Below are positions 10,303-28,695 of a DNA stretch of 32,000 bases, in pieces. A model generated the notes under the pieces. The model had not been told where the DNA came from and ran no database searches. It saw only the letters and a list, made by a program, of their open reading frames with translations. Source of the stretch: Opitutales bacterium (GTDB taxonomy: Bacteria > Verrucomicrobiota > Verrucomicrobiia > Opitutales > PNEW01); contig CBDCNV010000001.1 in NCBI GenBank assembly GCA_965219535.1, positions 540,001 to 572,000 on the forward strand, in the 5' to 3' direction. Made by a program: the position numbers and the translations under genes. Positions within the stretch are counted from its first letter, which is position 1, and each line of letters begins with the position of its first letter.

Positions 10303-10333
10303 ACGGCGATTGGTTAGGGTGATTATTGCATCA

Positions 10334-11119: not shown

Positions 11120-11206
11120 CCCTAACGTTCAAGTTGACCGGCGGCGCGAAAAGCGTCGCCTTCAGTATCGACGATGATCGCCGTCCGGTCCAACGCTTTG
11201 TTATAC
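11120..11206 (-). other. Integron attC-like recombination site (attC-1)
   Basis: Read on the minus strand: GTATAAC ... GTTAGGG. The arms GTTCAAGTTGACCGGCGGCG and CGCCG[T]CCGGTC[C]AAC pair, leaving two bulged bases on the plus strand. It begins 13 nt after the upstream stop and ends 27 nt before the next start. Confidence 0.7.
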
Positions 11207-11219
11207 CGCGATTCATGCG

Positions 11220-12101
11220 CTACGAGTCTCGGGATTCCAGCTCTTGACGATACCGTTGTGTTGTCCAAATGTCAGTATCCCAAAAGTCTTTGACCACTGG
11301 ATTGTATTCGGCATCACGATCAATTGCCCAGTGATAATGTTTGATTGGGCGCACACTATCGTCATTTCCGATACGAACACAACGGCCGATTATGGTCCAA
11401 ATGTCACAAGCATTCCAAAATTGATTAGCGTTTTCGAGAACGGGTTCCGGGAGCGATTCAATGAAGAGTTCATTGAATGTTGCTATGAATCGCGCGGATC
11501 GCGTTTGGACGACATCGTCGACGGCCCATATATATTCCGGCTCTTCGGGAATCTCCGCACAGCCAAGGTCATCCATTGCGTAAAGCACGACAGATTCACG
11601 CAGCGCAGATAAGACAACCGAATCGCGCGAAAGTGCAGCCAATGCCACCAGAGAAAAATCGTCGGAATCCAGCGCAAATTGACAGGCCGAGTTTGTGAGA
11701 TTCTCGATGTTCCATTCAGGAAATGTCTTCTGCAGGGCAACGGACAATGAATCTTCGCCGACCGTAAGGAGATAATCATCAACAAACGGCGGGCCAAAGA
11801 TAGGTGATTCAGTAACCTGCTTGAGGCGAGTGAAACCATCGACAGAGCTCAATTCGGATTCGCGATGTTTGGGAACTCGTTGAAGCGCGCGAACTAGACG
11901 GAAGTATTCAGTGAGAAGTTCGTCTTCTGCGTAGTACCCTTCAATTGGTACGTCCGCAGGCGCAACCGACAATGCGCTGGCGGTTTCTTTGGCGCAACGC
12001 AAGAGTTCATCGCGCTCGTGGCACTTCATGGCCTCGCGATAGAGGTCATCAAGACCGATCAGAAACACGCGGTTGTCTACGACTCGGCGTTCTGTATTCA
12101 T
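11220..12101 (-). CDS. Hypothetical protein (cassette-encoded)
   Basis: 293-aa ORF bounded by attC-2 (upstream) and attC-1 (downstream). I recognise no motif. Confidence 0.65.
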   Translation of the reverse strand: MNTERRVVDNRVFLIGLDDLYREAMKCHERDELLRCAKETASALSVAPADVPIEGYYAEDELLTEYFRLVRALQRVPKHRESELSSVDGFTRLKQVTESPIFGPPFVDDYLLTVGEDSLSVALQKTFPEWNIENLTNSACQFALDSDDFSLVALAALSRDSVVLSALRESVVLYAMDDLGCAEIPEEPEYIWAVDDVVQTRSARFIATFNELFIESLPEPVLENANQFWNACDIWTIIGRCVRIGNDDSVRPIKHYHWAIDRDAEYNPVVKDFWDTDIWTTQRYRQELESRDS

Positions 12102-12120
12102 GGCGGCAATTGAGTTAGCG

Positions 12121-12177
12121 GTATAACGTTTGAGCTAAGCGGCGCGTTTACGCGTCCGCTTCAGCGACTTGTTAGAA
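12121..12177 (-). other. Integron attC-like recombination site (attC-2)
   Basis: Plus strand: GTATAAC GTTTGAGCTAAGCGGCGCG TTTA CGCG[T]CCGCTT[C]AGCGACTT GTTAGAA. On the minus strand the TAA stop of ORF 12172-12597 lies inside the TTCTAAC box. Confidence 0.75.
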
Positions 12178-12597
12178 AGTTTCCTTTTTTAGTAAGTCTC
12201 TTCCGCCGTGACTGAGTAGCTTCTTCTTATATTCAATCGATTGCATCTGAGGACATTCCAATACTGCCTTGATAAATATCTCTGGTGGTAGGTAATTATG
12301 TACTGCGACATAATGAACGATTAGCTCCGGGGCGGCATAAACATTGCCGTCATAGGGAATGAATAGATTCGCGGTGCCTTTCGCTCCATCGAATTGACAT
12401 AGTTCACATTCATGCGCTCCACCAGACACGAATGTCTGGAATGGTTTTGAAGCAAGGTTCTTCAACTTAGAATAGAATTCTCCAGAAACCTTGCCTTTGG
12501 GAAATTCGAATTCCCAAGATAACCACCCTACTGCAACGAGCTTCTCGCTTCGCACTGGAAAATAGTCACAGATTTCTAAGTCTTTAATTCGTGTCAT
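12172..12597 (-). CDS. Hypothetical protein with HxCxxC ... YAAPxLIxHYxxxHxYxPP motif (conserved family of unknown function)
   Basis: 141 aa. GAHECELCQ ... VYAAPELIVHYVAVHNYLPPEIFIKAV resembles a widespread uncharacterised family that I recall only in outline. Confidence 0.65.
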   Translation of the reverse strand: MTRIKDLEICDYFPVRSEKLVAVGWLSWEFEFPKGKVSGEFYSKLKNLASKPFQTFVSGGAHECELCQFDGAKGTANLFIPYDGNVYAAPELIVHYVAVHNYLPPEIFIKAVLECPQMQSIEYKKKLLSHGGRDLLKKETF

Positions 12598-12606
12598 TAT
12601 ATTTCT

Positions 12607-12748
12607 AACAAGTGATTCTAAAGTTCTGTAATTTCGTGTGTGAGGATAATGCTGTCAAGGTTGGTAACTGATAAATACACAATTTTCTAACTTGTGTTCC
12701 TTACTCCAAACGTGATATAGGTATTTCTGCTTTTGTGATTCCTTATCA
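12607..12748 (-). repeat. 142-bp upstream 'leader' repeat, copy 1
   Basis: Homologous to 28530-28671, with conserved ends and a divergent central ~40 nt. On the minus strand the sequence just downstream of the conserved part reads CACTTGTTAGAAATATA-ATG, a GTTRRRY-like box just before the start codon. Confidence 0.6.
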
Positions 12749-12782
12749 TCACTTGCCGGCAATCGAAACAGTTAATTAAGAT

Positions 12783-12950
12783 CTAACTATATTTCTGAAT
12801 CCAACTGTAAACGGTATTGTAATTTAATTTTAACTTCCTAGCTATTGCCGCAATATTCAATCCCCATTCATACAGATCTAAAACTTTTTGCGAATACTCT
12901 TGTTTAATCCGTTTTTTGTATCCGGGGCAAAGTTTCCTCGGACGACCACC
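12783..12950 (-). pseudogene. Relic of a transposase-type helix-turn-helix N-terminus
   Basis: The minus-strand frame reads PTGGRPRKLCPGYKKRIKQEYSQKVLDLYEWGLNIAAIARKLKLNYNTVYSWIQKYS*. This is typical of IS630/IS3-type HTH regions. It has no start codon and is cut off by element B. Confidence 0.35.
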
Positions 12951-12953
12951 TGT

Positions 12954-13030
12954 GGGAAGAAAAAGGGGTCAAACGTAGAATTTAAATGTAATCGTCTGAT
13001 GAACTAATTACTGACCCCTTCTGGCTTTTC
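12954..13030. mobile_element. Family-1 element, internally deleted copy B (77 bp)
   Basis: The first ~60 nt of the family-1 left end are joined directly to the last ~20 nt of the right end, at the repeated TGACCC motif. Confidence 0.6.
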
Positions 13031-13127
13031 TTATATACCATAAGCGATAAAACGCTGTGGTTACTCGCTGTCGCTGTTCAGTGGTAAAATTGATTCTGTA
13101 TCCATGACTCCTTCCTCTACGATACTC

Positions 13128-13226
13128 CCAGAACATTAGCCGCTTTTACGATAGTTGCTTGTTGCCTTTCACACTGCAAAAACCGAGTATCGCTAATAAA
13201 CCTGATTGGCTAATCTAATGTTGGAT
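13128..13226 (+). other. Long attC-like junction element (S-type, copy S5), plus-strand orientation
   Basis: CCAGAAC-ATTAGCC ... GGCTAATCTAAT-GTTGGAT. The 3' half is homologous to the minus-strand reading of 23968-24010. GTTGGAT lies 19 nt before ATG 13246. Confidence 0.4.
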
Positions 13227-13245
13227 AAGCCGAGAAAGGCAAGGC

Positions 13246-14844
13246 ATGATGGAGCAACCGTTTCGACTTATATGGGAGGCTGAATGGAACGACATCGCGT
13301 GCGTGGATTACCCGCTGACGCCGGAGCAATGGCTGGGCGAGTGCATACGCCCGCTGGAGGGGACGCAGGTGGACTGCCTGCTCTACAACCTGTGCTCGTC
13401 GGACGCATACTGCTGCGACCTGGAAAGCGGCGAGATCCTGGGCGATGCGTTTGATCAATTCGAGGATGCCTGGGTTTGGCGCTATCGAGAGAACACTAAG
13501 AAGCTGATCGAGGCGAACGCGAACCCGCCGGTGCTTGCGTGTGAGTACGGGCACCGCATGGGATTGAAGCTGATTCCGATCGTTCGCATGAATGATGCAC
13601 ACGACCAAGTTTACAAGTACGAGGTCAGCCGGTTCAAGATGGCCAACCTGCATCTGCTTTTGGGTTACACCGGACCGGATTGGCAGCCACCTTGGGGCAC
13701 ATGGTTCCGAGCGCACCCCCATCCCGAGAGCATGGACTCCACTAATTGGGGGATGTTTGATTTTGCGCACAAAGAGGTCCGCGACCACAAAATGGCCATC
13801 ATCAAGGAGTTCATCACCCGATGGGACAACGACGGCGTCGCGCTTGATTTCGACCGTGATCCTCGCTACTTCAAAGAGTTCGGCAAGGCGGAAAACGCTG
13901 CGCTTATCACGGACATGGTACGGCAGACGCGCGAGATTCTGGACCGCGTGAGCAGCGAACGTGGTCGGCCCATGTACCTGCATGTGCGTGTCGTGGCAGA
14001 TATCGACACGTGCTGGCAACGAGGAATGGACGTGCGAACGTGGGTAACTGAGGGGTTGGTCGACGCCGTTGCGCCTGGCGCCGGATACATGTTATTCGAT
14101 TTGGACCTCGGTCCGTGGTTGGAACTGGTCGAAGGGCATGACTGCTGGATTTTCCCCTGCGCGAACCACTGGAGAAGGACGGAAGTGACCCGCGCCTGGG
14201 CCAAGTTAATGTATCATCGGGGAGCGCATGGTCTGCAACTGTTCAACTACGGGCACTTGCTCTACGGACACGGAAAAGATACGCCACCGCAATCCGAGCG
14301 AACAGGGACGGTCTGGTACGACGATCTGCACCCGGATTATTATCGTGTGCTGCGCGAGATCCACGATCCGGGCGCAATTGCCTTTCTCAACTGCGATTAC
14401 GATCTCGATTCACATCCGCGCGCGCCAAACCAGGGCGCTGAATCGGGACAGAACCACAGGATCTACCGGGGTATCGACGCGATCGTGCTCCCTGTGGAGC
14501 TGTCGGTTGGGTCACACGTCATCCCATTCGGGATTGCCGATGATCTGGAAGCGGCACGGCAACGGGTGCTGTCGCCGAGAGTCACCTTGCGATTACAGGT
14601 ACACAACTTCACGCAGCCGGATGAGTATAAGGTCTCAGTTAATGGAAGGTTATTGCCGGTAGATACGCGGAGCACCCGGGCGCAGTTTATCATGGACAAT
14701 TTTACTCGCATAACTTATCCCATACCGCCCGATGTCTTGAGGTTCGGCCAGAATGAATTGAAGATCGACATAGAACGCCTCAATCCGGTGATTTGCGTGA
14801 CTCCGCGACTGGATCATGTCGAGATTCTCGTGCAATATGCCTGA
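13246..14844 (+). CDS. Putative TIM-barrel glycoside-hydrolase-like protein
   Basis: 532 aa, GC-rich. FDFAHKEVRDHKMAIIKEFITRWDNDGVALDFDRDPRYF resembles the EVR...YD.DG..LD..R.P segment of GH-like (GHL10-type) families. The functional call is tentative. Confidence 0.55.
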   Translation: MMEQPFRLIWEAEWNDIACVDYPLTPEQWLGECIRPLEGTQVDCLLYNLCSSDAYCCDLESGEILGDAFDQFEDAWVWRYRENTKKLIEANANPPVLACEYGHRMGLKLIPIVRMNDAHDQVYKYEVSRFKMANLHLLLGYTGPDWQPPWGTWFRAHPHPESMDSTNWGMFDFAHKEVRDHKMAIIKEFITRWDNDGVALDFDRDPRYFKEFGKAENAALITDMVRQTREILDRVSSERGRPMYLHVRVVADIDTCWQRGMDVRTWVTEGLVDAVAPGAGYMLFDLDLGPWLELVEGHDCWIFPCANHWRRTEVTRAWAKLMYHRGAHGLQLFNYGHLLYGHGKDTPPQSERTGTVWYDDLHPDYYRVLREIHDPGAIAFLNCDYDLDSHPRAPNQGAESGQNHRIYRGIDAIVLPVELSVGSHVIPFGIADDLEAARQRVLSPRVTLRLQVHNFTQPDEYKVSVNGRLLPVDTRSTRAQFIMDNFTRITYPIPPDVLRFGQNELKIDIERLNPVICVTPRLDHVEILVQYA

Positions 14845-14862
14845 GCGCTTAGCATTTGGGAA

Positions 14863-15129
14863 GGGAAGAAAAAGGGGTCAAACGTAGAATTTAAAATGTA
14901 ATCGTCTGATGAACTAATTACTGACCCTTTAGGAGTAACAGATAGGCAGGCGTTCTGAGATCTCTGGTTAACTTTCTATTGTCCTTCCGCGTAATAGTTG
15001 ACCAATCTCAACCATCGATTCAACATTTCACCTTCAATTCTTTGCTTTCATCATAGCTTATTATACGGATTGCTTCAATTGACACTCATTAGATATTTAA
15101 ATTCTACGTTTGACCCCTTCTGGCTTTTC
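14863..15129. mobile_element. MITE-like element, family 1, copy C
   Basis: Same ends and interior as copies A and D, with a few substitutions and a 1-nt indel. It starts 18 nt after the stop of the upstream gene. Confidence 0.7.
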
Positions 15130-15217
15130 AGCGACCTCTGCGTCTCCGCGGTTAAATTTTCTTTTTTAAATACATTATTTTTTTGTGTTTATTCGTGTCT
15201 ATTGGTGATTAAATTCA

Positions 15218-16267
15218 ATGCTGAAGATTAGTGATGTTATGAAAGGAAATTGGCCGGTCGGGAAATCACCTGTGGAGGTGGGGCGTAGGATAGCGAGTTA
15301 CATTGTCAGTCGGGAGTTGAGGTATGTGTATGCGGCGACTTGTGCCTACTATGGAGCGCTTATATTTTCCGATGCCACCCATGACACGGATCTGCGCAAT
15401 CGTGTCATCGCTAATTATGAACCTTTCCTCATGGGTGACAAGAGCCCGCGCACGGGGCACGTGGACAACAACCTGTTTGGCATTGTGCCTTTTGAGATCT
15501 ATCGCCAGACGAAGGAAAAAAAATACCTGGCGATTGCGAAGTTGCTGGCCAACGACGAATGGGAGAACCCGCGACCCGACGGTTTAACCAAGTATACGCG
15601 TTTTACCGCGGATGATCCCTACATGGTCGGTTCATTGCAGGCCCAGGCTTACAAGGCTACGGGTGACATCGATTATGCAGACCGTGGCGCGAAGTTTATA
15701 CTGGCTTATGCGGAGAAGCTTCAGCGACCGGATGGTCTTTTTATCTATGACGAGAACAGACCGATTGCCTGGGGTAGAGGTAACGGCTGGTGCATTGGCG
15801 GCATGACGGAAATGCTGCTCGCTTTTCCCGAGGACCATGCCCAGCGAGAAGCGCTCATGGAAGTCTATCGAAAACAGATTGACGGTCTGATAAAACACCA
15901 GGACGAAACGGGAATGTGGCACCAGGTGATCGACAACCCCCATCTATTTCTCGAGTCATCGGGCACCGGAATAATTACCTATGCCATAGCAACTGGTGTT
16001 GAGCAAGGATGGCTGCCCGAAAAGACTTACCGGGATGTAGCCGAGCGTGCCTGGCTGGCGCTCACCGACTATGTTGACGAACAAGGCCAGGTGCGGAATA
16101 TCAGTTCAGGACATGTAGCCCTGATAAGAGAGTCTATGGAATTTTATGCCGAGCATGGCGAATTCCCGAAAGATGATTATCCCTCTATGAATGAAGTCGG
16201 TGATTTTCATGGTCAGGCAGTCGTGCTCTGGGCCGCAGCGGGGATGGAGAGAATCAGTAAACAGTGA
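15218..16267 (+). CDS. GH105/GH88-family unsaturated glycuronyl (rhamnogalacturonyl/glucuronyl) hydrolase
   Basis: Motifs WGRGNGW, GMWHQVID and ESSGTGIITYA, as in YteR/UGL-type enzymes. 349 aa. Confidence 0.8.
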   Translation: MLKISDVMKGNWPVGKSPVEVGRRIASYIVSRELRYVYAATCAYYGALIFSDATHDTDLRNRVIANYEPFLMGDKSPRTGHVDNNLFGIVPFEIYRQTKEKKYLAIAKLLANDEWENPRPDGLTKYTRFTADDPYMVGSLQAQAYKATGDIDYADRGAKFILAYAEKLQRPDGLFIYDENRPIAWGRGNGWCIGGMTEMLLAFPEDHAQREALMEVYRKQIDGLIKHQDETGMWHQVIDNPHLFLESSGTGIITYAIATGVEQGWLPEKTYRDVAERAWLALTDYVDEQGQVRNISSGHVALIRESMEFYAEHGEFPKDDYPSMNEVGDFHGQAVVLWAAAGMERISKQ

Positions 16268-16294
16268 ACAGTAAGTGGGCACTTGAGCGGGTGG

Positions 16295-16498
16295 AGTCGA
16301 AGGTCGAAGGTCTAAGGTCAAAAGGGGGGAGAAGAAAAGGGTTCAGGTTTCGGGTGTCGGATTTCGGAAAAAAATACTTATTATCGTTAGGAACAATCGT
16401 ACCCAGGGCAATACCCGACATTCTCCAAATCGGAAATCAGCAATTATTCTAACCCTGAACCTTCATAACCTAAAACCTAACACTTAACATCTAAAACT
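16295..16498. repeat. Palindromic element J (GGGTTCAGG variant) flanked by 7-bp tandem arrays
   Basis: 4 x RGTCKAA at 16295-16322. Inverted arms AAAAGGGTTCAGGTTTCGGGTGTCGGATTTCGG / CCGACATTCTCCAAATCGGAAATC...CCCTGAACCTT. About 5 x TAA(A/C)A(C/T)(C/T) heptamers at 16464-16498. Confidence 0.55.
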
Positions 16499-16508
16499 GA
16501 TCGATAGA

Positions 16509-18725
16509 TCACTCTATCGTTATCTCGTCTACTTCGACCGTGATGACATCGCCGTCTTCGTTAGCGAAGGTGGCATTAATACTCTGCGTAGGCTGAGGGG
16601 TGTTGTCAGACTTGAAGTTGTTCTGGGTGATCAAGGTCTCAAACCCCGTTGCGGGCGACCCGCTCTCCGCCACTACGATGGATGCTCCGTTCGTCTGCGC
16701 GAGGTCACCTCCGGTGATGCGCAACCCGGGGTTGCCGGCGGGCACGGAGAAGGACCCTTCACCAAAGAGGAGGTGGGGCACTGCATCGCCGTCGGCATCG
16801 ATATCACCTACGGTTAAGCGCACGGCAATCGGGACCCCGCGCGCATCGACGCCAACCTTGCCGGTGTTGCCACTGAAGACGGTGTTCGATAGTTGCATTC
16901 CTCCCATTCCCGTGGAGTTGATCACTTCCACCAAGGTCACGTCGGCCTGTGCGTCATAGACCTGTCCCTCGGGGAACAACGCCTGGTTCACCGCATTGAT
17001 TGATCCTACCGTAAAGATACTGAAGAAAGTACTGGAGTCGGCTCCATCAATGACCACGCTCGGTTTGCCCGTCACGTACTCGACTGACTGGTTGTAGCGT
17101 GGGGGGACGGCCGGAGGCAGGAAGGTGGCCGGGTCGAGGGTTACGGTAAAGGTGCCCGTGCCGGAGAATTCCACCTGCACGATGTCCTCGGTTTCATCCA
17201 TAAAGGAGACGCGTGTGATCTGATTCGGTCTGGCCTGTAGTTGGATGGACTCTCCGGTTAGGAGTATTTGATCAAAGACGTTACCGTTGGGATGCTGAAT
17301 GTTTTCACCGGCAATATCGCCTGAGCCGTCGAGGACCAAGGGCACGGAGGGGGCTGCGACGGTGATAACCGCAGTATCACTGTTAGTACTACCACCAGCG
17401 TTTGTTATCTGTACCCAGAAGTTGCTACTTGCGGTGAGGGCACTGGTTGTGAAGCTACTGCCAGTGGCCCCGGCGATGGGACTCGCGGTGTCACCGCTAT
17501 TGCCGGTAAACCATTGGAATGTAAGATCGTCACCACTGGCTTCAACGGACAAGCTGGTCGATGCACTGGACTGCACCTCCTGGCTCGCTGGTTGGGTGGT
17601 GATAGAGGGAGCATCCGCGGGTGGGGGACCCTCGGAGCCCGTTCCCGGGGCGCCGATGGGAGTAAAACCGAAATCATCGAAGACGGTTCTGCTTCTCGCA
17701 GTATTTACATTGGGGTTGTCCGAAACAATAATTCTGTCAATGCCGCCTGGAGCTCCCAACTCCACCGCATTGATCGTAGTTTGACGGGGTTTAAGTAAAG
17801 CACCAAGACCCCCAGCACTTTCCAAGTCCGAAAAGGTAGCAAGAAGGTTATCATTAGTATCGTAAACTTCGATTGATCCGTCGGGATCAGTATCGCCAGA
17901 CAAAATAATGGCTGCAGCAAAAACATCGATCTCGAATGCCGGGGTTTCAAAAGTGACCGTGAAGCTTTCTCCGTTAAAAATCCCATAGGATACTTGTCCC
18001 GAACGCGTTGGATTTTCTGAAGCACCAGCTAGTATCGAGCCCCCATCAAAAGTAGCACTATTGGGTGATGCCCCAACAATAAGGGGTTCAATTATTCCTG
18101 CACCCACACTGAATTCCTCAAATGTAGTGAATACGGTGTTATTGGACGGTCTTCTCGTTATCGTGAATCCCAGATCGTCAAGGGAGAATTTTCCTGAAAC
18201 ATTTTTTATTTTTAATTCTTTAATGCCGTCGAGAAAGTCAAAATCGGACGAGTCGAGGAACATATCACTGTCTGAAACGAAGATTTGAAGTGGTGGATTG
18301 GCACCGGGACTGATATTGGTAGGGAGACCATCGACAATACCATTATCCGCTAGAGTTGATGGAAATATTTGGCCTTCAAAAGGGAAATTTCCTCTGGGCT
18401 CGATCCTGCCGGCTCCCGTATTTTCGGCCGCATAAAATTGGATTTCATCAATACCTCTTTCCGATACAATTACCCCCTCCTGACCAGGCCCGAGGGTTAT
18501 CGCTTTTGTTCCGGAGTGTAAAAGTGCTGGATCTTCCAGGGTTTCCACCGTGAATCCGACTATCTTTACCCTGTTGGGTTCTTCCCCAATGAAAAATTCA
18601 CCTTCCCCGCTGATGTCCTCGAAATCGGTGAACACCTCGAGGTCTTGAGGAAGGGCCGACAGATGCACCGGTAAATAGAGTAAAAGAATCAGAAGCGGAA
18701 TTATTTTTATAGGTTTTCTTTTCAT
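16509..18725 (-). CDS. Large secreted surface protein with Ig-like domain (adhesin-like, function unknown)
   Basis: 738 aa with a signal peptide (KIIPLLILLLYLPVHLSA). It has an Ig-like module (ITTQPASQEV...LTFQWFTGNSG...AVITV) and repeated FxDFE-type N-terminal modules. Confidence 0.7.
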   Translation of the reverse strand: MKRKPIKIIPLLILLLYLPVHLSALPQDLEVFTDFEDISGEGEFFIGEEPNRVKIVGFTVETLEDPALLHSGTKAITLGPGQEGVIVSERGIDEIQFYAAENTGAGRIEPRGNFPFEGQIFPSTLADNGIVDGLPTNISPGANPPLQIFVSDSDMFLDSSDFDFLDGIKELKIKNVSGKFSLDDLGFTITRRPSNNTVFTTFEEFSVGAGIIEPLIVGASPNSATFDGGSILAGASENPTRSGQVSYGIFNGESFTVTFETPAFEIDVFAAAIILSGDTDPDGSIEVYDTNDNLLATFSDLESAGGLGALLKPRQTTINAVELGAPGGIDRIIVSDNPNVNTARSRTVFDDFGFTPIGAPGTGSEGPPPADAPSITTQPASQEVQSSASTSLSVEASGDDLTFQWFTGNSGDTASPIAGATGSSFTTSALTASSNFWVQITNAGGSTNSDTAVITVAAPSVPLVLDGSGDIAGENIQHPNGNVFDQILLTGESIQLQARPNQITRVSFMDETEDIVQVEFSGTGTFTVTLDPATFLPPAVPPRYNQSVEYVTGKPSVVIDGADSSTFFSIFTVGSINAVNQALFPEGQVYDAQADVTLVEVINSTGMGGMQLSNTVFSGNTGKVGVDARGVPIAVRLTVGDIDADGDAVPHLLFGEGSFSVPAGNPGLRITGGDLAQTNGASIVVAESGSPATGFETLITQNNFKSDNTPQPTQSINATFANEDGDVITVEVDEITIE

Positions 18726-18836
18726 GCTGTTATAACGATTGTAGCGATGCCAAAGATCGGCGCAAGGACTATACGCTTATTGGGTATTTTTTTACTGGTT
18801 GGTTAGTCATTTAAACTAACCGTATTTAATATAAAG

Positions 18837-19102
18837 GGGAAGAAAAAGGGGTCAAACGTAGAATTTAAATGTAATCGTCTGATGAACTAATTACTGACCC
18901 TTTAGGAGTAACAGATATGCAGGCGTTCTGAGATCTCTGGTTAACTTTCTATTGTCCTCCCGCGTAATAGTTGACCAATCTCAACCATCGATTCAACATT
19001 TCACCTTCAATTCTTTGCTTTCATCATAGCTTATTATACGGATTGCTTCAATTGACACTCATTAGATATTTAAATTCTACGTTTGACCCCTTCTGGCTTT
19101 TC
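18837..19102. mobile_element. MITE-like element, family 1, copy D
   Basis: Nearly identical to copies A and C. Its right end lies 4 nt from the stop codon of ORF 19107-20063. Confidence 0.7.
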
Positions 19103-19106
19103 TCCC

Positions 19107-20063
19107 TTACCAGGCGTGGGCCCACTCCATTTCGATCCATTTAAGCGGTTTCTCCCCCAGCACCTTACAGCCGTGGTCCACATGCTTGGGCGCGAAAATC
19201 AGGTCTCCGGCCTTCACTTCAGTCGTCGTATAACCGATCTCTAAGAGGCCTCGGCCCGAAAGTATATAAAAAGCCTGTTCCCGATCATGGTGGGCATGTG
19301 TGGGCGTCCCGCCATCTGGCCCGTATTGAGACAGGGCAGACCGTACCATCAGACTGTTCGCTTTGAAATTATTCCACCTTTCCAAGTCTTTCGGGTTATA
19401 CAAGAGGGAAGCCGAAAGCCGGGTATGGCCGCCCGCGCCAACAATCGTTAACCCGTTGTCTTTTTGGCGAGGCGCAGGCGCCACGGTAATGTACCCGCCC
19501 TCTCTGAAATAGTCGAACGGACTGCTGGATTCAGAACGGATGACCGGTTTTACATTCGCGTGCGGCACGGCACCCTCCTCCTTCCAGACAGCCTTCACGA
19601 GCCTTAACGGTTCCGCTCCCGTCACCTTCGCCGCAAAAGACAATCCGGATGGAACGAAAATCACGTCCTCTTTCACCACATCGGATATGAAGGATCCGAT
19701 TTTAATATCGGCTGTTCCTCCCGCAACGATGAGCAAAGTTTCTACCTTTCCCTCTCCAGCCCCGAGAAGCGCCTCGCCGTCGGAGGAATATTCCAGGATA
19801 GAAACATGAGCCAGGTTTGAATTTCCCCGATGATTCCAATCCCGATTATCTTTCGGGGATACGAGCACCGCCATCGACTTGCCCCGCTCACCTTCCGAAT
19901 CGGGGACCGCCTTCAACGGGTTCGTCTCCTCATTAAAGATCAAATGCCCCCACCCGGGGCCGTCGTCAGATTGAAGGGCCGCGGTGAAGAAGATTAGCGC
20001 CAGGACTAACGATGCGGTGACCCTGCGCGCGACCGATTTTTCAACAGCTTTCAAGAAAAGCAT
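19107..20063 (-). CDS. Secreted bicupin protein
   Basis: 318 aa with a signal-like N-terminus (LVLALIFFTAALQS). Two cupin-like halves; the C-terminal one carries THAHHDREQAFYILSG...HVDHG. Confidence 0.7.
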   Translation of the reverse strand: MLFLKAVEKSVARRVTASLVLALIFFTAALQSDDGPGWGHLIFNEETNPLKAVPDSEGERGKSMAVLVSPKDNRDWNHRGNSNLAHVSILEYSSDGEALLGAGEGKVETLLIVAGGTADIKIGSFISDVVKEDVIFVPSGLSFAAKVTGAEPLRLVKAVWKEEGAVPHANVKPVIRSESSSPFDYFREGGYITVAPAPRQKDNGLTIVGAGGHTRLSASLLYNPKDLERWNNFKANSLMVRSALSQYGPDGGTPTHAHHDREQAFYILSGRGLLEIGYTTTEVKAGDLIFAPKHVDHGCKVLGEKPLKWIEMEWAHAW

Positions 20064-20097
20064 GATATTATGTCTCAGAAGGAAAGTAAAAAAGAAT

Positions 20098-20252
20098 AAA
20101 AAAGGGGTCAGGCTGTGTATCTATAGATTTCAACTTAGTAAATTATATCACACCGTAGTTGGATACGATTAAAAAAATAAGATTTGTTCATTCAACTGTT
20201 CTCTTTATTTTCGAATCCATATAAACTATATATACACAACCTGACCCCTTTT
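20098..20252. mobile_element. MITE-like element, family 3 (copy F)
   Basis: Inverted ends AAAAGGGGTCAGGCTGTGTAT / ATACACAACCTGACCCCTTTT (1 mismatch) enclose an AT-rich ~110-nt core. Confidence 0.6.
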
Positions 20253-20258
20253 GTTCAT

Positions 20259-20387
20259 CCTGAATGTTAGAGTTTGTTTCAGCTAGACGAACTCTCATTG
20301 GCAAGATCTGAGGAGTGATAGTTGTTTTGTTGACACAATGACTATTCGCCTGGATTGCCGTGTCGTGTTACTCCTCACAATGACAAG
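20259..20387. mobile_element. Family-2 element, truncated copy
   Basis: Matches 9886-10036. It lacks the left ~70 nt and an internal 26-nt segment. It abuts element F. Confidence 0.55.
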
Positions 20388-20455
20388 AAAGGTAGCAAAT
20401 GCTGTCAGCGGTAAAATCTCCGCTTCAAAAATAGAGCGAAATTCAAAAGAAATTC

Positions 20456-20525
20456 AAAAGGGGTCAGGCCTTGCATTCCGGCAAAAAAATAAAAAAAATG
20501 CTAGGATGCAATGCCTGACCCTTTT
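20456..20525. repeat. Family-3 hairpin (copy G), terminator-like, directly downstream of the BNR gene
   Basis: AAAAGGGGTCAGGCCTTGCAT ... ATGCAATGCCTGACCCTTTT: an A-tract, a ~17-bp stem and a T-tract, ending 2 nt from the stop at 20528. Confidence 0.55.
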
Positions 20526-20527
20526 CG

Positions 20528-21619
20528 CTAATCAGCCGCGACCATCAGGCTGTTTCCCCTGGCCTTGTTCACGAGCAGACCCAGCGCGGCAGCGTCTGAG
20601 ATGCACGTGCCCTGAGCCACATCGTCCTGGGTGAACGTTGCCATAAGAATTTCCTTTGCGCCCCTACGGGAGCGGTCGTAAATCACGTAGATGATCCCGT
20701 CCGGCGCCTGCACCCCATCCGGATAGGAGACCTCGTCGCGTTCATCGAGCAGCAATCCACCGATCCAGGAGTTCCCGTCATTCTTCGAGAGGAACGCTGT
20801 GAGATGCGATCGGCCGATTCGCTTGTTGATTGGGCCGTGTTTCACCAGCAGTAAGTTTCCCGATCGAAGTCGTCGCACAAAGAAGCGAGACATCGTGTGC
20901 TGGATTTGTAATGGCCGCACCAGGCTCCATGTTCGGCCACGGTCAGTAGAGATACTCTCGCCAATGCCGTATTGTGTGCGAACAAGCATCCATAATGCCC
21001 CGTTGCCTCGCTCAACAATCATGTGCTCTTCGGCATTGCGATCTTGCGCCGGCACCGTGCTCTGACCAAGAAAGTGCCATGTAGAGCCCTGGTCGGAAGA
21101 GGAATAGACCTGGGCACTCCCCTCGCGATGCCAGCAGGCGACGGGAAAGAGCCACTCCCCCGAGGATAACACCGTGGGCTTGTTCAGCATGACGCCATCG
21201 CACAACCGCACGGGCTCCGACCACTCTGGCTTGGTTGCGTCGGATTGCCGTGTCGTGATTGCCCAGACGCCTGTTCGCTCATCCGTGTGCCGCTCGTATC
21301 CCTGAGCCCAGAACAGCCACAGCCGTCCGTCCGGATCGTGCCACAGGCAGGGATCGAACGCCCTCACCGGCCCATCGCCGTCAGGGTCGATGACAAGCCC
21401 CACGTCGGACCATTTACTCCCGCCGTCTTCGCTGGTGGCAAGCAAGATGTGGTTATATCGATCTTCACGGATGCCGCCACCATACCACGTTGCCCACAAC
21501 CTGCCTGACCGAGCACGCTCAACGCTCGGGATTCCCTGGAACTTGCGCGAGCCATCGGCATACTTCGGCCCGGGCGGAATCACCACTTCAGGTGCGCACA
21601 TATAAGCTTCTTCACTCAT
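20528..21619 (-). CDS. BNR-repeat (sialidase-like, GH33-type fold) glycosidase family protein
   Basis: Four Asp-box motifs: SEDGGSKW, SSDQGSTW, STDRGRTW, SKNDGNSW. ATG 21619 has an AAAGGAA RBS. The ORF-track TTG start at 21643 would run into attC-6. Confidence 0.8.
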   Translation of the reverse strand: MSEEAYMCAPEVVIPPGPKYADGSRKFQGIPSVERARSGRLWATWYGGGIREDRYNHILLATSEDGGSKWSDVGLVIDPDGDGPVRAFDPCLWHDPDGRLWLFWAQGYERHTDERTGVWAITTRQSDATKPEWSEPVRLCDGVMLNKPTVLSSGEWLFPVACWHREGSAQVYSSSDQGSTWHFLGQSTVPAQDRNAEEHMIVERGNGALWMLVRTQYGIGESISTDRGRTWSLVRPLQIQHTMSRFFVRRLRSGNLLLVKHGPINKRIGRSHLTAFLSKNDGNSWIGGLLLDERDEVSYPDGVQAPDGIIYVIYDRSRRGAKEILMATFTQDDVAQGTCISDAAALGLLVNKARGNSLMVAAD

Positions 21620-21634
21620 CTGAACATTCCTTTC

Positions 21635-21691
21635 GTCTAACAACCAAGGACAGGTGCGGCTTCAGCCGTTACCTGCTCCGCCTTGTTCTAA
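21635..21691 (-). other. Integron attC-like recombination site (attC-6)
   Basis: Plus strand: GTCTAAC AACCAAGGACAGGTGCGGC TTCA GCCG[T]TACCTG[C]TCCGCCTT GTTCTAA. It abuts the VOC stop codon and ends 15 nt before the BNR ATG. Confidence 0.7.
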
Positions 21692-22081
21692 TTAGCTTCG
21701 TATACCAGCCTCGATGTTGTTTCCGTCGGGATCTAAAAGATATGCGCCGAAATAGCCGCGGCCACAGTCTTCTGGTTTCCCATTGTCACGACCACCGTGC
21801 TCAAGCCCCAATCTATGAAATTCTCTTACCGCCTGTTTAGATGGCGCCTTAAAGCCGATGTGAATTGGTCGATGTACATTCACGCTCAGCTTCGTTCCGT
21901 AATACTCACCCTGAGCTTGCCCTACCCATAGAAAAGGGAATTTTGTTTCGTCCGCGAAAATTACTGCGTTCCATTCCGGTTGACTCTCCCAGATTTTGAT
22001 CCCCAAGGGAGCAAGACATGCCTCAAGAAACGGTATACTCTTATCGAAATCAGAAACATAGAATCCAAAATGATCAATCAT
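21692..22081 (-). CDS. VOC family (glyoxalase/bleomycin-resistance/dioxygenase fold) protein
   Basis: 129 aa. N-terminus IDHFGFYVSDFDKSIPFLEACLAPLG and C-terminus GAYLLDPDGNNIE are typical of VOC domains. Confidence 0.8.
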   Translation of the reverse strand: MIDHFGFYVSDFDKSIPFLEACLAPLGIKIWESQPEWNAVIFADETKFPFLWVGQAQGEYYGTKLSVNVHRPIHIGFKAPSKQAVREFHRLGLEHGGRDNGKPEDCGRGYFGAYLLDPDGNNIEAGIRS

Positions 22082-22233
22082 CGTTAACCTTTCTATGTAG
22101 CCATGAATCCGTCTACAATATCCTCGATGTCAGTTGTGTATGATATTCCTTCAGCTCTGTGCGAAGTGTCTCTCGATATTGCAGGTATCTTATTTTGTCG
22201 GTCTCCAGCACATTGTTAGATTCCGACCCCTCT

Positions 22234-22653
22234 TCACTCACCAATGGGATACCCCATGATCCAAACAATGAAAATAACAAGAATTTGAACAAAGAGTAGG
22301 GGAATATACCAAGCGAAAACAGAAATTAAATTGACCCACCATTTTTGCTTTGAAGATATTTGAATGAATTTTTCTAAATAAGTTCCAATCCCCAAAACCA
22401 AAAATAGGCCAACCAGAAAAACAATTGCAAATAAAAAAATCCCAGGTTTAGGAAACCAATTTTGTAAGGCTAGGATCAGTGGATATGGCCATAAATAAGC
22501 TGTCATCATCAAAAGATCGGCTGGTTCACCTAAAATGAGCTTGGTCGCTCGACCAATGAAAAAAAGAGAAGAGAAAACCAAATACAGAGCGGCTATTTTC
22601 GTGGCGAGTATATGCCGTTTGTAATAAGAGCGTGTGAAGAATGATATTTTCAT
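22234..22653 (-). CDS. Small integral membrane protein, unknown function
   Basis: About 4 hydrophobic segments. ATG 22653 lies 11 nt after the attC-3 GTTAGAT box. The ORF-track start at 22701 would translate through the attC hairpin. Confidence 0.6.
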   Translation of the reverse strand: MKISFFTRSYYKRHILATKIAALYLVFSSLFFIGRATKLILGEPADLLMMTAYLWPYPLILALQNWFPKPGIFLFAIVFLVGLFLVLGIGTYLEKFIQISSKQKWWVNLISVFAWYIPLLFVQILVIFIVWIMGYPIGE

Positions 22654-22664
22654 ATTGCTAAGGA

Positions 22665-22719
22665 ATCTAACGATTGAAATCAGTGGTGCTTTAGCGTTCA
22701 CTGGATTGATCTGTTAGAA
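22665..22719 (-). other. Integron attC-like recombination site (attC-3)
   Basis: Plus strand: ATCTAAC GATTGAAATCAGTGGTGC TTTA GCG[T]TCACTG[G]ATTGATCT GTTAGAA. Identical over ~55 nt to 23905-23959. Confidence 0.7.
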
Positions 22720-22731
22720 AATATTTATTTT

Positions 22732-22786
22732 CCCTTACATTAGATTAGGCAACAGGTTTTTAGCGTGGCGTGCTGCCGTTGCTTAG
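22732..22786 (-). repeat. S-type junction repeat, copy S1 (degenerate)
   Basis: ACATTAGATTAGGCAACAGGTTTTTAGCG is homologous to 23973-24000 and 24573-24600. It lies between a stop codon and attC-3. Confidence 0.4.
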
Positions 22787-23055
22787 CTATTCAGGATCAC
22801 TGATATGCTCTGTGAGTTTTATCCATTCCTTGTTTACAGCACCAGACACCGAAGAAATTTGCCAAAACCATACTTCTCCTGTTGTTACATTAACTCTATA
22901 TAAAAATTGACCTGCATCTGTAAATTTGGGAATATTTCAAACTGATCTTTATCTGGTATTTCAATCTGATCTTTAGGTAGTATGATCTGATAACAACCAG
23001 CGACACCGAGAACTATTCCGAGCAATAGAATCCAAATATAATTTTGATTTTTCAT
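22787..23055 (-). pseudogene. Small lipoprotein-like ORF, apparently frameshifted
   Basis: ATG 23055 opens MKNQNYIWILLLGIVLGVAGC... (lipobox-like), stopping at 22885. A second frame continues ...FTDAGQFLYRVNVTTGEVWFWQISSVSGAVNKEWIKLTEHISDPE* to 22787. It is below the ORF-track size cut-off. Confidence 0.3.
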
Positions 23056-23279
23056 ATGCACACCTTGTTAGATCAGATGAGTGAAAGCGATCTCATATTG
23101 AAGCGTAATTGCCTCTAGGATTTGTTTTGAATTTTGGAAAAAAGTTACCGTCGTTTAGTAAAAGCGGATTCAGCTAACGATGAAGCTCAGCGGTCGCCGC
23201 GAAGCGGATGGTTCGGCAGTTCATTCATTCCGCCCTAATCATTCCTAAATATGCCATCAAAGATGGTACCCATGAAGGT

Positions 23280-23891
23280 TCAGAGCCCTTTTGTCATTCG
23301 ATAGAACTTCAATCCCGGTATAGCCAATCGCTTCGGCCACTGCGACTCGACGTTCATCCCGCGGCGCTCGTAGAATCGGCGAGCCCCCTCATTCTTAGCT
23401 GAAACGTCGAGGGATAGTCGAGTCGATCCGATCGCGCGAGCCCGCTCTTCAAAGGAGTCCATCAAGACGGAGCCGACGCCATCGCCGCGAAGTTCCTTAT
23501 CAACAGCGATGGCCCCGAGGTAGAAATCGCCATCGGCGATTGAATCGATAATCCGCATGAGTGGAGCAAACAGTATTAGCACGATCCTCATTCGTAGATT
23601 ACGCCTTCCGGCAGCCCGCTTCAGGGGTTGGAGCGAGGAACGGCGATGCTGCTCCGCGGTGTACCCCGAGACCATTTCCACTATGACGTTGTCACGTTCT
23701 GCAAAAGTCACATTTTGGTAGGAGAGGTCGTGATCGGGCTGGGTGAACGCAGTGGCGATTATGTATCCGGCGCGGCGACCGAGCATAAAACGAAAGAACC
23801 CCTCGGCTGCTTCGTCAAGGTAGCGGGCACATGCCAGACCTTCATCGAACGTGGGGTTGGCAGCCCTTAGGACTATCGAATGCCGATCCAT
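23280..23891 (-). CDS. GNAT family N-acetyltransferase
   Basis: Acetyl-CoA motif A IAVDKELRGDGVGSVLM, followed by NEGARRFYERRGM. 203 aa. Confidence 0.85.
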   Translation of the reverse strand: MDRHSIVLRAANPTFDEGLACARYLDEAAEGFFRFMLGRRAGYIIATAFTQPDHDLSYQNVTFAERDNVIVEMVSGYTAEQHRRSSLQPLKRAAGRRNLRMRIVLILFAPLMRIIDSIADGDFYLGAIAVDKELRGDGVGSVLMDSFEERARAIGSTRLSLDVSAKNEGARRFYERRGMNVESQWPKRLAIPGLKFYRMTKGL

Positions 23892-23904
23892 ATGGTCCTT
23901 CTAC

Positions 23905-23959
23905 GCCGAACGATTGAAATCAGTGGTGCTTTAGCGTTCACTGGATTGATCTGTTAGAA
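23905..23959 (-). other. Integron attC-like recombination site (attC-4)
   Basis: Same hairpin as attC-3. On the minus strand it reads TTCTAAC ... GTTCGGC and ends 13 nt before the GNAT ATG. Confidence 0.7.
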
Positions 23960-23967
23960 AATATTTT

Positions 23968-24050
23968 TTCTAACATTAGATTAGCCAACAGGCTTTTAGC
24001 GAGGCGTAATTACTCGAGGATTCGTTTTGATTGCGAGCTGATTTACACCG
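23968..24050 (-). repeat. S-type junction repeat, copy S2 (possible long attC variant)
   Basis: It fills the gap from the cupin stop (24052) to attC-4. The minus-strand reading ends GGCTAATCTAATGTTAGAA. It is homologous to S1, S3 and S5. Confidence 0.45.
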
Positions 24051-24051
24051 C

Positions 24052-24519
24052 CTAAATCTCCAGCGGTGGTCCCACTATCTCCATGTTGTACTTCTCGGCT
24101 AAGGCATTGGCTTTGGCAACGTAAGCCTCTGTGTCCGTAACATCCAGATCGACTGCTTCATCAAAGAACTGCTCAAATCCTGGTGGAGAAAAGATGACGA
24201 GGAACTTGGCAGGCTCCTGCCCGACCCGAGAAAAGGCGTGAACCGTTCCTCTGGGGACAAGGACGAAGGAACCAGCTGTCGCTCTAATAGTGCGTTCACC
24301 CAACAGGATATTAATCTCTCCCTCCAAGACATAGAAGGCTTCATCCTCGGTTTTGTGTATGTGTTGTGGCGGTCCGTCCCCGACAAGCTCAACTTCCAAC
24401 AGTGAATACCCGTCATCAGTGTCCGCACCAACCACCTTATGCGTTACCTTGTGACCTGGCACTGGAACTATCTTGCCTTCTCCTGGGCCAAGTAAAATGT
24501 TTTCATCGTTATTAGACAT
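24052..24519 (-). CDS. Cupin domain protein
   Basis: 155 aa. PPQHIHKTEDEAFYVLEG ... GTVHAF are cupin motifs. Confidence 0.8.
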   Translation of the reverse strand: MSNNDENILLGPGEGKIVPVPGHKVTHKVVGADTDDGYSLLEVELVGDGPPQHIHKTEDEAFYVLEGEINILLGERTIRATAGSFVLVPRGTVHAFSRVGQEPAKFLVIFSPPGFEQFFDEAVDLDVTDTEAYVAKANALAEKYNMEIVGPPLEI

Positions 24520-24570
24520 GACTTGCTATCCTTTCCTCATGGACCTCCGTTCGTTGTTTTCCGTGCTTCA

Positions 24571-24650
24571 TCACATTAGATAGCCAACAGGTTCTTAACA
24601 AGGCGTAATCGCCAATAAGATTCATTTAGATCGCGAGCTGATTGCTGTCA
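24571..24650 (-). repeat. S-type junction repeat, copy S3
   Basis: ACATTAGATAGCCAACAGGTTCTTAACAAGGCGTAAT...GATCGCGAGCTGATTGC is collinear with S2. Confidence 0.45.
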
Positions 24651-24712
24651 TCAACCCTCCATTGACCATACCATCCCCCACATCAATAGCAGTAAAGGAT
24701 ATAACATTATTG

Positions 24713-24922
24713 TCATTTACCACTATCCTTCTTGAAGCCACTAATTACCCATATTGATCCCCATATTATCAGCGGTGGAAGTAATCCAAAGGTCGCGAAC
24801 GCTCCGATATCTTCAGGAACAAACCTTAAGAACCAGAGTATCCAAAGGACCGTTAAGATCAACGCTCTTTTCTGCCACGAAAGCTGCATAACTATTATTA
24901 AAATACAGATGGAATTGCTCAT
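24713..24922 (-). CDS. Small two-TM membrane protein, unknown function
   Basis: ATG at 24922 (MSNSICILIIV...). The ORF-track TTG start at 24940 overlaps a degenerate S-type repeat (GGCAACAGGC...). Confidence 0.45.
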   Translation of the reverse strand: MSNSICILIIVMQLSWQKRALILTVLWILWFLRFVPEDIGAFATFGLLPPLIIWGSIWVISGFKKDSGK

Positions 24923-25134
24923 TGAAAGACTCAATGGCAACAGGCAGTAAGAAGAATAAAAGGGATTTCCTCAGTGAAGCCGTGAGAGTGTTTTGATGGG
25001 CTGGGGTACGTTTGGATACTTCTTGGTTAATTGCCTTGTGTTAAAATAGCCAGCGTTACTATCTTGCAAAAGACCTGCTGCAGTTAATGCATCTAATCAG
25101 TATACAGGGTTCTAAAAAAATGGAGAGGACAGAT

Positions 25135-25641
25135 ATGAATTTAAATTACATGGGTATAATCATCGGCGGGTTTCTACCCGCTATTATATTTGGTATCGGC
25201 GGAATATTCTTAAAAGCCAGCGCTCGGCAAGGGATAAGCCTGAACCATTTAATCTTATTTGCCGGGGCAGGGGCGATTTTCCTGGCGTTCCTGTTATTGG
25301 TTCTAATCAAAGAAAAATCGATAAGCGCTGGGTCCGCGACGTTGGCATTTTGTGTCGGACTGTCATGGGCAAGCGCCACAGCTCTAATGTCAATAGCGAT
25401 GGTTAAGTTTGAAACTCCAATTTCAATAATTGGTCCCTTAACTTCTACAGCCAGTCTGATCACGGCCCTGCTGGCTATGTGGATATTTTCAGAATGGAAA
25501 GAAGTCCTTATCGCACGTCTTCTGATTGGCGCCACCCTCATTGTAATAGGAGTTATGCTGGTGTCTACGTCGTCTGAAGCGAACAGAATTCAACATTCGA
25601 TACCCCCTGGTAATCAACATGGGGATGAACACTTCAACTGA
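25135..25641 (+). CDS. Small DMT/EamA-like membrane transporter (single 5-TM domain)
   Basis: GGAGAGG lies 6 nt before ATG 25135. Five hydrophobic segments. Glycine-rich TM1 (GIIIGGFLPAIIFGIGGIF). Confidence 0.55.
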   Translation: MNLNYMGIIIGGFLPAIIFGIGGIFLKASARQGISLNHLILFAGAGAIFLAFLLLVLIKEKSISAGSATLAFCVGLSWASATALMSIAMVKFETPISIIGPLTSTASLITALLAMWIFSEWKEVLIARLLIGATLIVIGVMLVSTSSEANRIQHSIPPGNQHGDEHFN

Positions 25642-25705
25642 TGCTGTATAACTAAAAGAAAAAAAAGAGTCAAGTGCGGCTCTCAGCCTTTGTCTACGAA
25701 ATATC

Positions 25706-25840
25706 AAAAGGGGTCAGGCCGTGTATTTATAGATTTTCTATCTACCTTTATTAAAACAATAAGATCTACTTAAATAAACAATCCGTATGCCGTTTTCTGA
25801 TATATGGGCCTATCGTATTTAAGTAGTGTGCATCCCGAAT
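25706..25840. mobile_element. Family-3 element, partial copy H2 (left end plus core)
   Basis: CAAAAGGGGTCAGGCCGTGTATTTATAGATTTTC matches the left end of F. The core at 25741-25840 matches 2687-2787. No right inverted end was found. Confidence 0.5.
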
Positions 25841-25940
25841 ATGATATTGATTTGGTCCAGTCAGTAGCGGAACGCGAAATACATGTAAGTGAGAATGATT
25901 TTTGATCCTCACACGAATCGCTCTAACTCATTGTCTTTGC

Positions 25941-26001
25941 ACCTAACGCCTGCCATTCAACTGCAAAGCGTAGCTTTGTCTGCTGCAATGGCTTGTTAGG
26001 C
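25941..26001 (-). other. Integron attC-like recombination site (attC-9)
   Basis: Plus strand: ACCTAAC GCCTGCCATTCAACTGCAAAGC GTA GCTTTG[T]CTGCTG[C]AATGGCTT GTTAGGC. The minus-strand boxes GCCTAAC and GTTAGGT fit RYYYAAC/GTTRRRY exactly. It begins 15 nt after the VOC2 stop. Confidence 0.7.
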
Positions 26002-28513: not shown

Positions 28514-28529
28514 TTCCTTTCCTACACCC

Positions 28530-28671: not shown

Positions 28672-28695
28672 AGAAATTCAAAAGGGGTCAGGATA

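Follow-up and report, generated by a model that had tools for sequence, protein, structure and literature searches.

The window analyzed here is a stretch of 32,000 nucleotides (nt) from the chromosome of an uncultured Opitutales bacterium of the phylum Verrucomicrobiota (contig CBDCNV010000001.1, positions 540,001 to 572,000). It carries a series of hairpins which are very probably attC sites of integron cassettes, arranged in a chromosomal array without an integrase. Such an array is known as a cluster of attC sites lacking an integron integrase (CALIN) (Cury et al., 2016, PMC4889954). In this interpretation the cytosine (C) found at the second bulge of most sites is an ordinary feature, and the array is decaying. 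The attC sites and related features are collected in Table 1, where the numbering of the sites follows the preliminary description of the locus.

Geometry of the hairpins

The five bulge strings given in the preliminary description were found on the plus strand, each once or twice, at positions 11179, 12151, 21665, 22694/23934, and 25973. Minimum-free-energy (MFE) folds of both strands, computed with DNA parameters, reproduced the bulges overall and did not place them on the strands at random. For attC-1, attC-2, attC-6, and the site at 26903-26960, the MFE fold contains the T bulge, six pairs, and the C bulge, all in the 3' arm of the plus strand. In attC-9 both bulges are formed, with four pairs and two mismatches in the 6-position segment. 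In attC-3 and attC-4 the G bulge is formed and, owing to two G.T wobbles, the T is placed inside a small internal loop. The z-scores of the hairpins range from -2.4 to -4.6, with the exception of attC-4 (-0.45), whose R boxes are unpaired.

Folds of the minus strand show mirror-image A and G/C bulges in the 5' arm. The claim that the bulges always fall on the plus strand was therefore loosely worded, as the minus-strand fold is bulged too, although the extra plus-strand bases do always lie in the higher-coordinate arm. Similarly, the single geometry ascribed to all hairpins holds for the seven full sites (T-N6-C or T-N6-G) and not for two others. The site at 23172-23217 has no T bulge and carries an A as its second extrahelical base, and at 22082-22221 only the R'' box can be recognized.

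A structural scanner was run over both strands with any base allowed at the bulges. It required AAC, 3-8 nt, a 12-nt arm, a loop, an arm of 3 nt, bulge, 6 nt, bulge, and 3 nt, followed by 5 nt and GTT. It recovered exactly the six sites of the preliminary description on the plus strand and none on the minus strand, against a mean of 0.72 in dinucleotide-shuffled windows (both strands together). Without the AAC requirement a seventh site was added (26903-26960, T-N6-C; null mean 0.43), which lies outside the range of the preliminary description. Spacings of N5, N7, or N8 and spacers of 4-7 nt only re-registered known sites and added scattered coding-region noise. A first, crude scan which relied on R-box complementarity at 6 of 7 positions had missed most sites and surfaced hairpins in coding regions, and it was replaced. 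One of these hairpins (13512-13588) is closed by R boxes, lies within a 532-aa open reading frame (ORF), and is not an attC site by geometry or by the covariance model described below.

Among the seven full sites, five are T-N6-C and two are T-N6-G, with the bulges of all seven in the 3' arm of the plus strand. Each site consists of an RYYYAAC box, an unpaired 5' spacer of 6-7 nt, a 3-bp L box, the 6-bp segment, an apical stem, and a 3' spacer of 5 nt. The distance from bulge to box is constant: the second bulge is followed by 3 nt, the 5-nt spacer, and GTTRRRY. AAC and GTT stand at fixed offsets in six of the seven, and the site at 26903 reads GCCTATC, a single change from AAC.

The bottom-strand geometry of classical attC sites was named T-N6-G by Larouche and Roy (2011, PMC3053210), and the extrahelical bases of attCaadA7 were given as G16/T23 (Nivina, 2016, PMC5027507). 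Both agree with the T-6 bp-G arrangement of attC(aadA7) given in the preliminary description. As the geometry in the window equals that of the classical bottom strand, the plus strand is read as the recombined bottom strand and the minus strand as the coding (top) strand, and all eight adjacent ORFs do lie on the minus strand. The sites share further features with those of class 1 mobile integrons (attCaadA7, attC ant(3'')-Ia), namely RYYYAAC/GTTRRRY boxes, an unpaired spacer of 5-6 nt, a 3-bp L box, a length of 55-87 nt, and two extrahelical bases 6 bp apart opposite the bottom-strand AAC, with the apical one being T. They differ from class 1 sites, which have G at the L''-box (second) bulge, in that five of the seven full sites have C; moreover, unlike class 1 integrons, the locus has no integrase or attI1 nearby and no resistance genes. 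The repeat (VCR) of the Vibrio cholerae superintegron also recombines through its bottom strand and has strand-defining extrahelical bases. In contrast to the diverse, two-bulge sites of the window, VCRs are about 120-130 nt long, highly uniform, and carry three extrahelical bases (G16, T20, T24).

Cassette structure and integrase

A covariance model (R1) was built from 46 attC sites which adjoin integrases in other genomes, with no sequence of the window included. It matched all seven full sites and an eighth (23172-23217), all on the plus strand, with E values of 1e-9 to 0.014. On the minus strand it found nothing credible, the best matches having E values above 4. The folds of 22078-22225 and 23166-23290 had not convincingly resembled classical attC sites; the second was later resolved by the model as the short eighth site.

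All eight sites sit 0-170 nt downstream of co-oriented minus-strand ORFs. The products of the adjacent ORFs are typical of cassettes and include a methyltransferase, a DUF7919 protein, two glyoxalase-family proteins, a GNAT protein, a cupin, and a sulfatase. For its excision as a circle, a cassette needs an R' half-box that pairs with its own R'' box. In the methyltransferase, ORF293, DUF7919, ORF155, and GNAT cassettes the reverse complement of the cassette's own R'' was found to equal the R' at its far end at 7/7 positions. The glyoxalase_6 and sulfatase cassettes agree at 6/7, so that seven of nine cassettes obey the cassette-end rule. Non-cognate R'/R'' pairs agree at a mean of 4.2/7, and none reaches 7. 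The truncated site (10302-10319), the isolated R'' box (22215), and the short site (23172-23217) are likewise upheld by this test. Moreover, attC-3 and attC-4 are identical rightward of AAC and unrelated leftward, the pattern produced by a bottom-strand crossover between A and C. The attC identity proposed in the preliminary description is thus borne out by the classical T-6 bp-G/C spacing, the model of foreign attC sites, the polarity of the ORFs, and the R'/R'' rule.

Onto the anatomy, polarity, and cassette junctions found here a mechanism can be projected from established integron biology. The plus strand would be the bottom strand and would fold as a hairpin when single-stranded (PMC2727003, PMC5027507, PMC3053210). 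An integron integrase would bind the R and L boxes with the two flipped-out bases lodged in its pockets, and these bases, opposite AAC, would help to discriminate the bottom from the top strand. Cleavage would occur between A and C of the R' box. From this cleavage point and strand choice it would follow that cassettes enter in the orientation in which minus-strand ORFs are readable.

A Pfam scan of 30 ORFs in the window detected no tyrosine recombinase (neither PF00589 nor PF13495), and none was present among the gene calls. Likewise, a tblastn search with IntI1 as query found no integrase in the window or in the adjoining 8.8 kb on the right. The array is therefore classed as a CALIN: in place of an intI gene adjacent to an attI and the array, as in a complete integron, there are at least two attC sites on one strand with no integrase nearby. 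As in other CALINs (PMC4889954), the sites lie within 4 kb of each other, resistance cassettes are absent, mobile elements are inserted nearby, and no integrase lies within 10 kb of the array head. Unlike in a typical CALIN, the array is split into two sub-arrays, each headed by a copy of the same 142-nt element.

It is possible, if somewhat doubtful, that the array still works as part of a complete integron whose integrase is encoded elsewhere on the chromosome and acts in trans. The AAC/GTT boxes are intact and the R'/R'' pairing clean in most sites, about half of CALINs share their replicon with an integron integrase gene (Cury et al., 2016, PMC4889954), and the region inspected amounts to just about 41 kb, while the contig is at least 379 kb long. 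Against this, miniature inverted-repeat transposable elements (MITEs) have replaced or truncated attC sites at about 10300 and at 20457-20525, where those of the methyltransferase cassette and the BNR gene are expected. In one R' box AAC has become ATC, two sites are degenerate, and no integrase remnant adjoins either array head. By these replaced, truncated, mutated, and degenerate sites, the array is decaying.

Several observations weigh against the interpretation of the locus as a CALIN of integron cassettes. The glyoxalase junction (21685 vs 22082) breaks the R'/R'' rule at 3/7, the small-ORF junction (22713 vs 23172) agrees at just 5/7, and the cupin cassette has no identifiable R' partner. 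The folds of attC-3, attC-4, and attC-9 are imperfect. As no integrase was found, the activity of the sites is putative. In addition, two closely related assemblies of the locus (L001 and L002) have the same cassette order and so give no direct sign of recent shuffling. There is next to no chance that the hairpins are unrelated intergenic palindromes, such as repetitive extragenic palindromic (REP)-like elements or terminators: although they are short, GC-rich, and placed right after ORF ends, and although Rfam at gathering thresholds gave no match in the window (the search turned up no attC family for comparison), this explanation was dropped because the model of foreign attC sites reaches an E value of 1e-9 on them, the AAC/GTT boxes stand at fixed distances from the bulges, and the R'/R'' rule holds, while the stems are followed by no T-run and the strand bias is 8/8.

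Table 1. Positions of attC sites, attC remnants, and junctions with the 142-nt element in the window (extrahelical bases in square brackets)
Feature	Coordinates	Strand	Details
attC remnant of the methyltransferase cassette	10302..10319	+	C GGC gattg GTTAGGG; remainder replaced by a MITE ending at ~10301; R'' GTTAGGG is the exact reverse complement of R' CCCTAAC at 11120
attC-1, bottom strand	11120..11206	+	CCCTAAC ... CCG[T]CCGGTC[C]AAC gcttt GTTATAC; 36-nt variable terminal structure; MFE -18.1, z -2.7; covariance-model E 0.014
attC-2, bottom strand	12121..12177	+	GTATAAC ... GCG[T]CCGCTT[C]AGC gactt GTTAGAA; covariance model 51.4 bits, E 1e-9
Junction between TTCTAA and C, then copy 1 of the 142-nt element; head of the DUF7919 sub-array	12603..12748	+	R' TTCTAAC is the reverse complement of attC-2 R'' GTTAGAA; candidate attI-like or secondary insertion site
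attC-6, bottom strand	21635..21691	+	GTCTAAC ... CCG[T]TACCTG[C]TCC gcctt GTTCTAA; covariance-model E 1.6e-4
Presumed degenerate long attC of the 155-aa ORF cassette	22082..22221	+	only R'' GTTAGAT (22215-22221) recognizable; no stable fold; exact reverse complement of R' ATCTAAC at 22665
attC-3, bottom strand, G-type	22665..22719	+	ATCTAAC ... GCG[T]TCACTG[G]ATT gatct GTTAGAA; covariance-model E 2.7e-5
Short degenerate attC of the GNAT cassette	23172..23217	+	AGCTAAC gatgaa GCTCAGCGG tcg CCGCG[A]AGC ggatg GTTCGGC; no T bulge; 22 bits, E 0.0055; R'' is the exact reverse complement of R' GCCGAAC at 23905
attC-4	23905..23959	+	same as attC-3 from AAC on; only the R' half (the neighbouring cassette's) differs; repeat family D5; covariance-model E 1.1e-4
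attC-9, bottom strand	25941..26001	+	ACCTAAC ... TTG[T]CTGCTG[C]AAT ggctt GTTAGGC; two mismatches in the 6-position segment, spacer partly paired; covariance-model E 4.8e-5
Seventh full attC, downstream of the sulfatase ORF	26903..26960	+	GCCTATC ... CCG[T]CGCGAG[C]AAC ggctt GTTGGGA; R' AAC changed to ATC; MFE -18.4, z -4.6; covariance-model E 9e-5
Junction between ACCCAA and C, then copy 2 of the 142-nt element; head of the sulfatase sub-array	28526..28671	+	R' matches the reverse complement of the sulfatase attC R'' at 6/7

The base at the second bulge

In the preliminary description it was suggested that C instead of G at the second bulge may mark a distinct attC/integrase lineage. Given that the older literature favours G, this was a reasonable flag. 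The L''-box bulge had been described as "almost exclusively a G" (PMC2727003), and the blaVIM-2 cassette was the only one known with C at this position (PMC3053210). The base identities were therefore tabulated, as the preliminary description had proposed, in a survey of attC sites linked to integrases. Diverse integrases were collected from IntI1 (query 100% identical to P0003) and 40 were aligned. The 80 integrase loci closest to the IntI1-anchored alignment were then taken from GTDB species representatives with 10-kb flanks. The scanner used for the survey covers two-bulge N6 sites with a 5-nt 3' spacer.

The survey yielded 92 attC sites (90 unique) in 30 of the 80 loci, from 30 species, while shuffles of the same 0.99 Mb gave 0-1 sites. 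Of the 92 sites, 91 lie on one strand per locus, and on that side of intI which is expected for a divergent or co-oriented integrase. The apical bulge is T in 78 of 92. At the L''-box bulge, C was found in 55 sites, G in 32, T in 4, and A in 1 (n = 92; phylogenetically uncorrected), and C is the majority base in 16 loci and G in 11. C-type arrays were found in Planctomycetota (22/22 sites), Acidobacteriota, Verrucomicrobiota, a cyanobacterium, and several Proteobacteria. Among the G-type arrays are that of the class 1 integron and those of most Betaproteobacteria, and an Aquabacterium array has G at 12/12 sites. In Verrucomicrobiota all three integrase-linked sites have C (3/3; L040, L057, L082). 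Within an array the second-bulge base is thus usually uniform, and it differs from one host group to another.

A close likeness to the window is seen in integrase-adjacent arrays of Planctomycetota, Acidobacteriota, and Verrucomicrobiota (L067, L078, L048, L017, L029, L040, L082). They share with it the T-N6-C bulges, a 6-nt 5' spacer, and similar 3' spacers (gcttt, ggctt, gcctt), and the 5' spacer "aaccaa" occurs both in L040 and in attC-6. They differ in having an adjacent integrase and terminal structures of mostly 37-50 nt, whereas the window has no integrase and mostly loops of 4-9 nt. C in second extrahelical position is also known from the blaVIM-2 attC, attCdfrA1, and engineered T-N6-C mutants of attCdfrA1 (PMC3053210). 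The blaVIM-2 and attCdfrA1 sites are clinical or engineered, and wild-type attCdfrA1 is A-N7-8-C, while the sites of the window are natural, chromosomal, and from Verrucomicrobiota. The engineered mutants have exactly the geometry of the window, and they were excised by all four integrases tested, namely IntI1, IntI3, IntI2*179E, and SonIntIA (PMC3053210).

It is quite improbable that C marks a separate class of attC sites which co-evolved with an integrase lineage of altered specificity, so that C and G cassette pools are partly insulated. The bulge base is uniform in 11 of the 16 surveyed loci with at least two sites, and it follows the host group, as seen in Planctomycetota and Aquabacterium. 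Excision of T-N6-C sites was also higher than that of T-N6-G sites with IntI3, IntI2*179E, and SonIntIA (PMC3053210). Against such a class, IntI1 takes both types about equally, with excision of T-N6-C similar or slightly higher (PMC3053210), and substitution of G16 in the VCR costs at most 2-fold (PMC2727003). The residues reported to contact the second-bulge base (K156, R168, K219, Y220, and W229 of IntI1) are essentially the same (K/Q-R-K-Y-W) in integrases beside C-type and G-type arrays. Mixed C/G arrays exist (L015, L029, L036, L044, and the present window), and C-type arrays are scattered over unrelated phyla and both integrase orientations. The suggestion of a distinct lineage was not supported, given that C was commoner than G in the survey, that the contact residues are essentially shared, and that T-N6-C sites are excised by four integrases. 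C is a common natural state of the L''-box bulge, one of two, and is not evidence for a new class of sites or a new lineage of integrases.

P242 of IntI1, which contacts the apical T, is replaced by R or E in the integrases of L012, L017, L029, L034, L042, and L048. The apical bulge is A, G, or C in the first three of these loci and T in the last three, so that co-variation is possible but inconsistent.

The 142-nt element, the island, and implications

Copies of the 142-nt element lie immediately upstream of the first ORF of each sub-array (12607-12748 and 28530-28671) and are 82% identical. The copies become similar precisely from the AAC of an R'-like box onward, and the element is joined between AA and C. 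At the junction, R' agrees with the R'' of the first cassette at 7/7 positions for DUF7919 (R' at 12603-12609) and at 6/7 for the sulfatase. The element was also found with the same junction of AAC and AAGTG and other left flanks in the strain with a 96%-identical secretin (L083, 6826-6905) and in five JGI metagenome contigs (L087-L091). On the cassette side of one such contig (L091) there are two attC sites, and the junction CGCTAAC is the exact complement of the R'' GTTAGCG of the first cassette. The junction property of an attI was seen twice in the window, in L083, and in L087-L091, while adjacency to intI was seen in no context: no integrase was found beside any copy (the five metagenome contigs were checked within about 3 kb). 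The element showed no similarity to the integrase-flanking DNA of the 80 surveyed loci. A scan of both copies for sigma-70 promoters gave nothing above chance; a conserved TTGACA-N17-(G/A)AATAT, seen by eye and failing the 4-of-6 rule of the scan, is a candidate promoter facing the cassettes. Judged by these junctions, the 142-nt element is a candidate for an attI-like or secondary insertion site.

The two sub-arrays (10.3-12.6 kb and 21.6-28.5 kb) are separated by about 8 kb of MITE-flanked non-cassette genes. The interval from the secretin gene (7754-9715) to the HAD hydrolase gene (29821-30669) measures about 20 kb in the window. In a genome whose secretin is 88% identical (L084) the same interval is about 1.7 kb long and contains no attC site, and the strain with a 96%-identical secretin (L083) has different content at the locus. 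As this interval varies among relatives, the array is placed in a strain-variable island; no attC sites were found at the same chromosomal position in related strains. The best named relatives of the secretin, at about 55-57% identity, belong to Ruficoccus, Cerasicoccus, Coraliomargarita, and Lentimonas.

Two kinds of MITE interrupt the island, with at least five copies or fragments of the one and three of the other. The first family, of about 260 nt with terminal inverted repeats AAAAGGGGTCAAACGTAGAATTTAAA, comprises three full copies (10038-10301, 14864-15131, 18837-19101); a further copy (12954-13031) has an internal deletion, and another (28692-28844) is divergent. The methyltransferase cassette has its attC truncated by one of the copies, and the non-cassette block at 13-20 kb, which holds GH88, immunoglobulin (Ig)-like, and cupin genes, is flanked by others. 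This arrangement suggests MITE-mediated rearrangement of the array. The second family, with ends AAAAGGGGTCAGGC, is found at 20100-20252, 20457-20525, and 25706-25736, and its second copy in this list adjoins the BNR/sialidase-like ORF at the stop codon, the place expected for an attC site.

Other repeats were also noted. The repeat ACATTAGATTAG(G/C)CAACAGG(T/C)TTTTAGCG..GGCGT occurs at 22726-22771, 23962-24060, and 24563-24650, with a reverse fragment near 13195-13225. At attC-3 and attC-4 it is found between the stop of the ORF and the R'' box, and it recurs upstream of the cupin ORF; in the related genome L084, a motif akin to it (ACATTAGATTGACC) follows the conserved small ORF. Another repeat, about 150 nt long (9885-10036 and 20259-20387, 82-97% identical), adjoins MITE copies at both ends of the first half of the island. 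It includes a stem (GTTAGAGTTTGTTTCAGCTAGACGAACTCTCA) and could represent a further small element, either mobile or RNA.

Within the cassette region lie an ORF for a 75-aa membrane protein (24713-24940) and an EamA-like ORF (25087-25641). Both are conserved at the locus in L083, and the former also in L084. Because of this conservation they look native, with the cassettes having accumulated around them, and seem not to be cassettes in their own right. The 532-aa plus-strand ORF mentioned above (13246-14844) has a GC content of 54% and no Pfam match, and it overlaps a 269-aa minus-strand ORF; its coding status is putative.

A wider pair of linked proposals must be called unlikely, namely that the C/G bulge is a host-structured preference signal and that the 142-nt element is an orphan attI or reusable secondary insertion site with an outward promoter. 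If they were true, the cassette pools of C-type phyla (Planctomycetota, Acidobacteriota, Verrucomicrobiota) would be partly separate from the G-type pool which feeds clinical class 1 integrons, and the 142-nt element would let cassette arrays form in genomes without an adjacent integrase.

The finding opens no new mechanism. It allows the region from 10.3 to 28.5 kb to be annotated with confidence as an integron cassette array of known polarity and boundaries, in a phylum with few described arrays. The "canonical G" stems from clinical, beta/gamma-proteobacterial, and Vibrio sites, while C was commoner among the integrase-linked sites of diverse phyla in the small survey made here. Therefore, curators of attC sites and designers of detection rules should not treat C as an anomaly.

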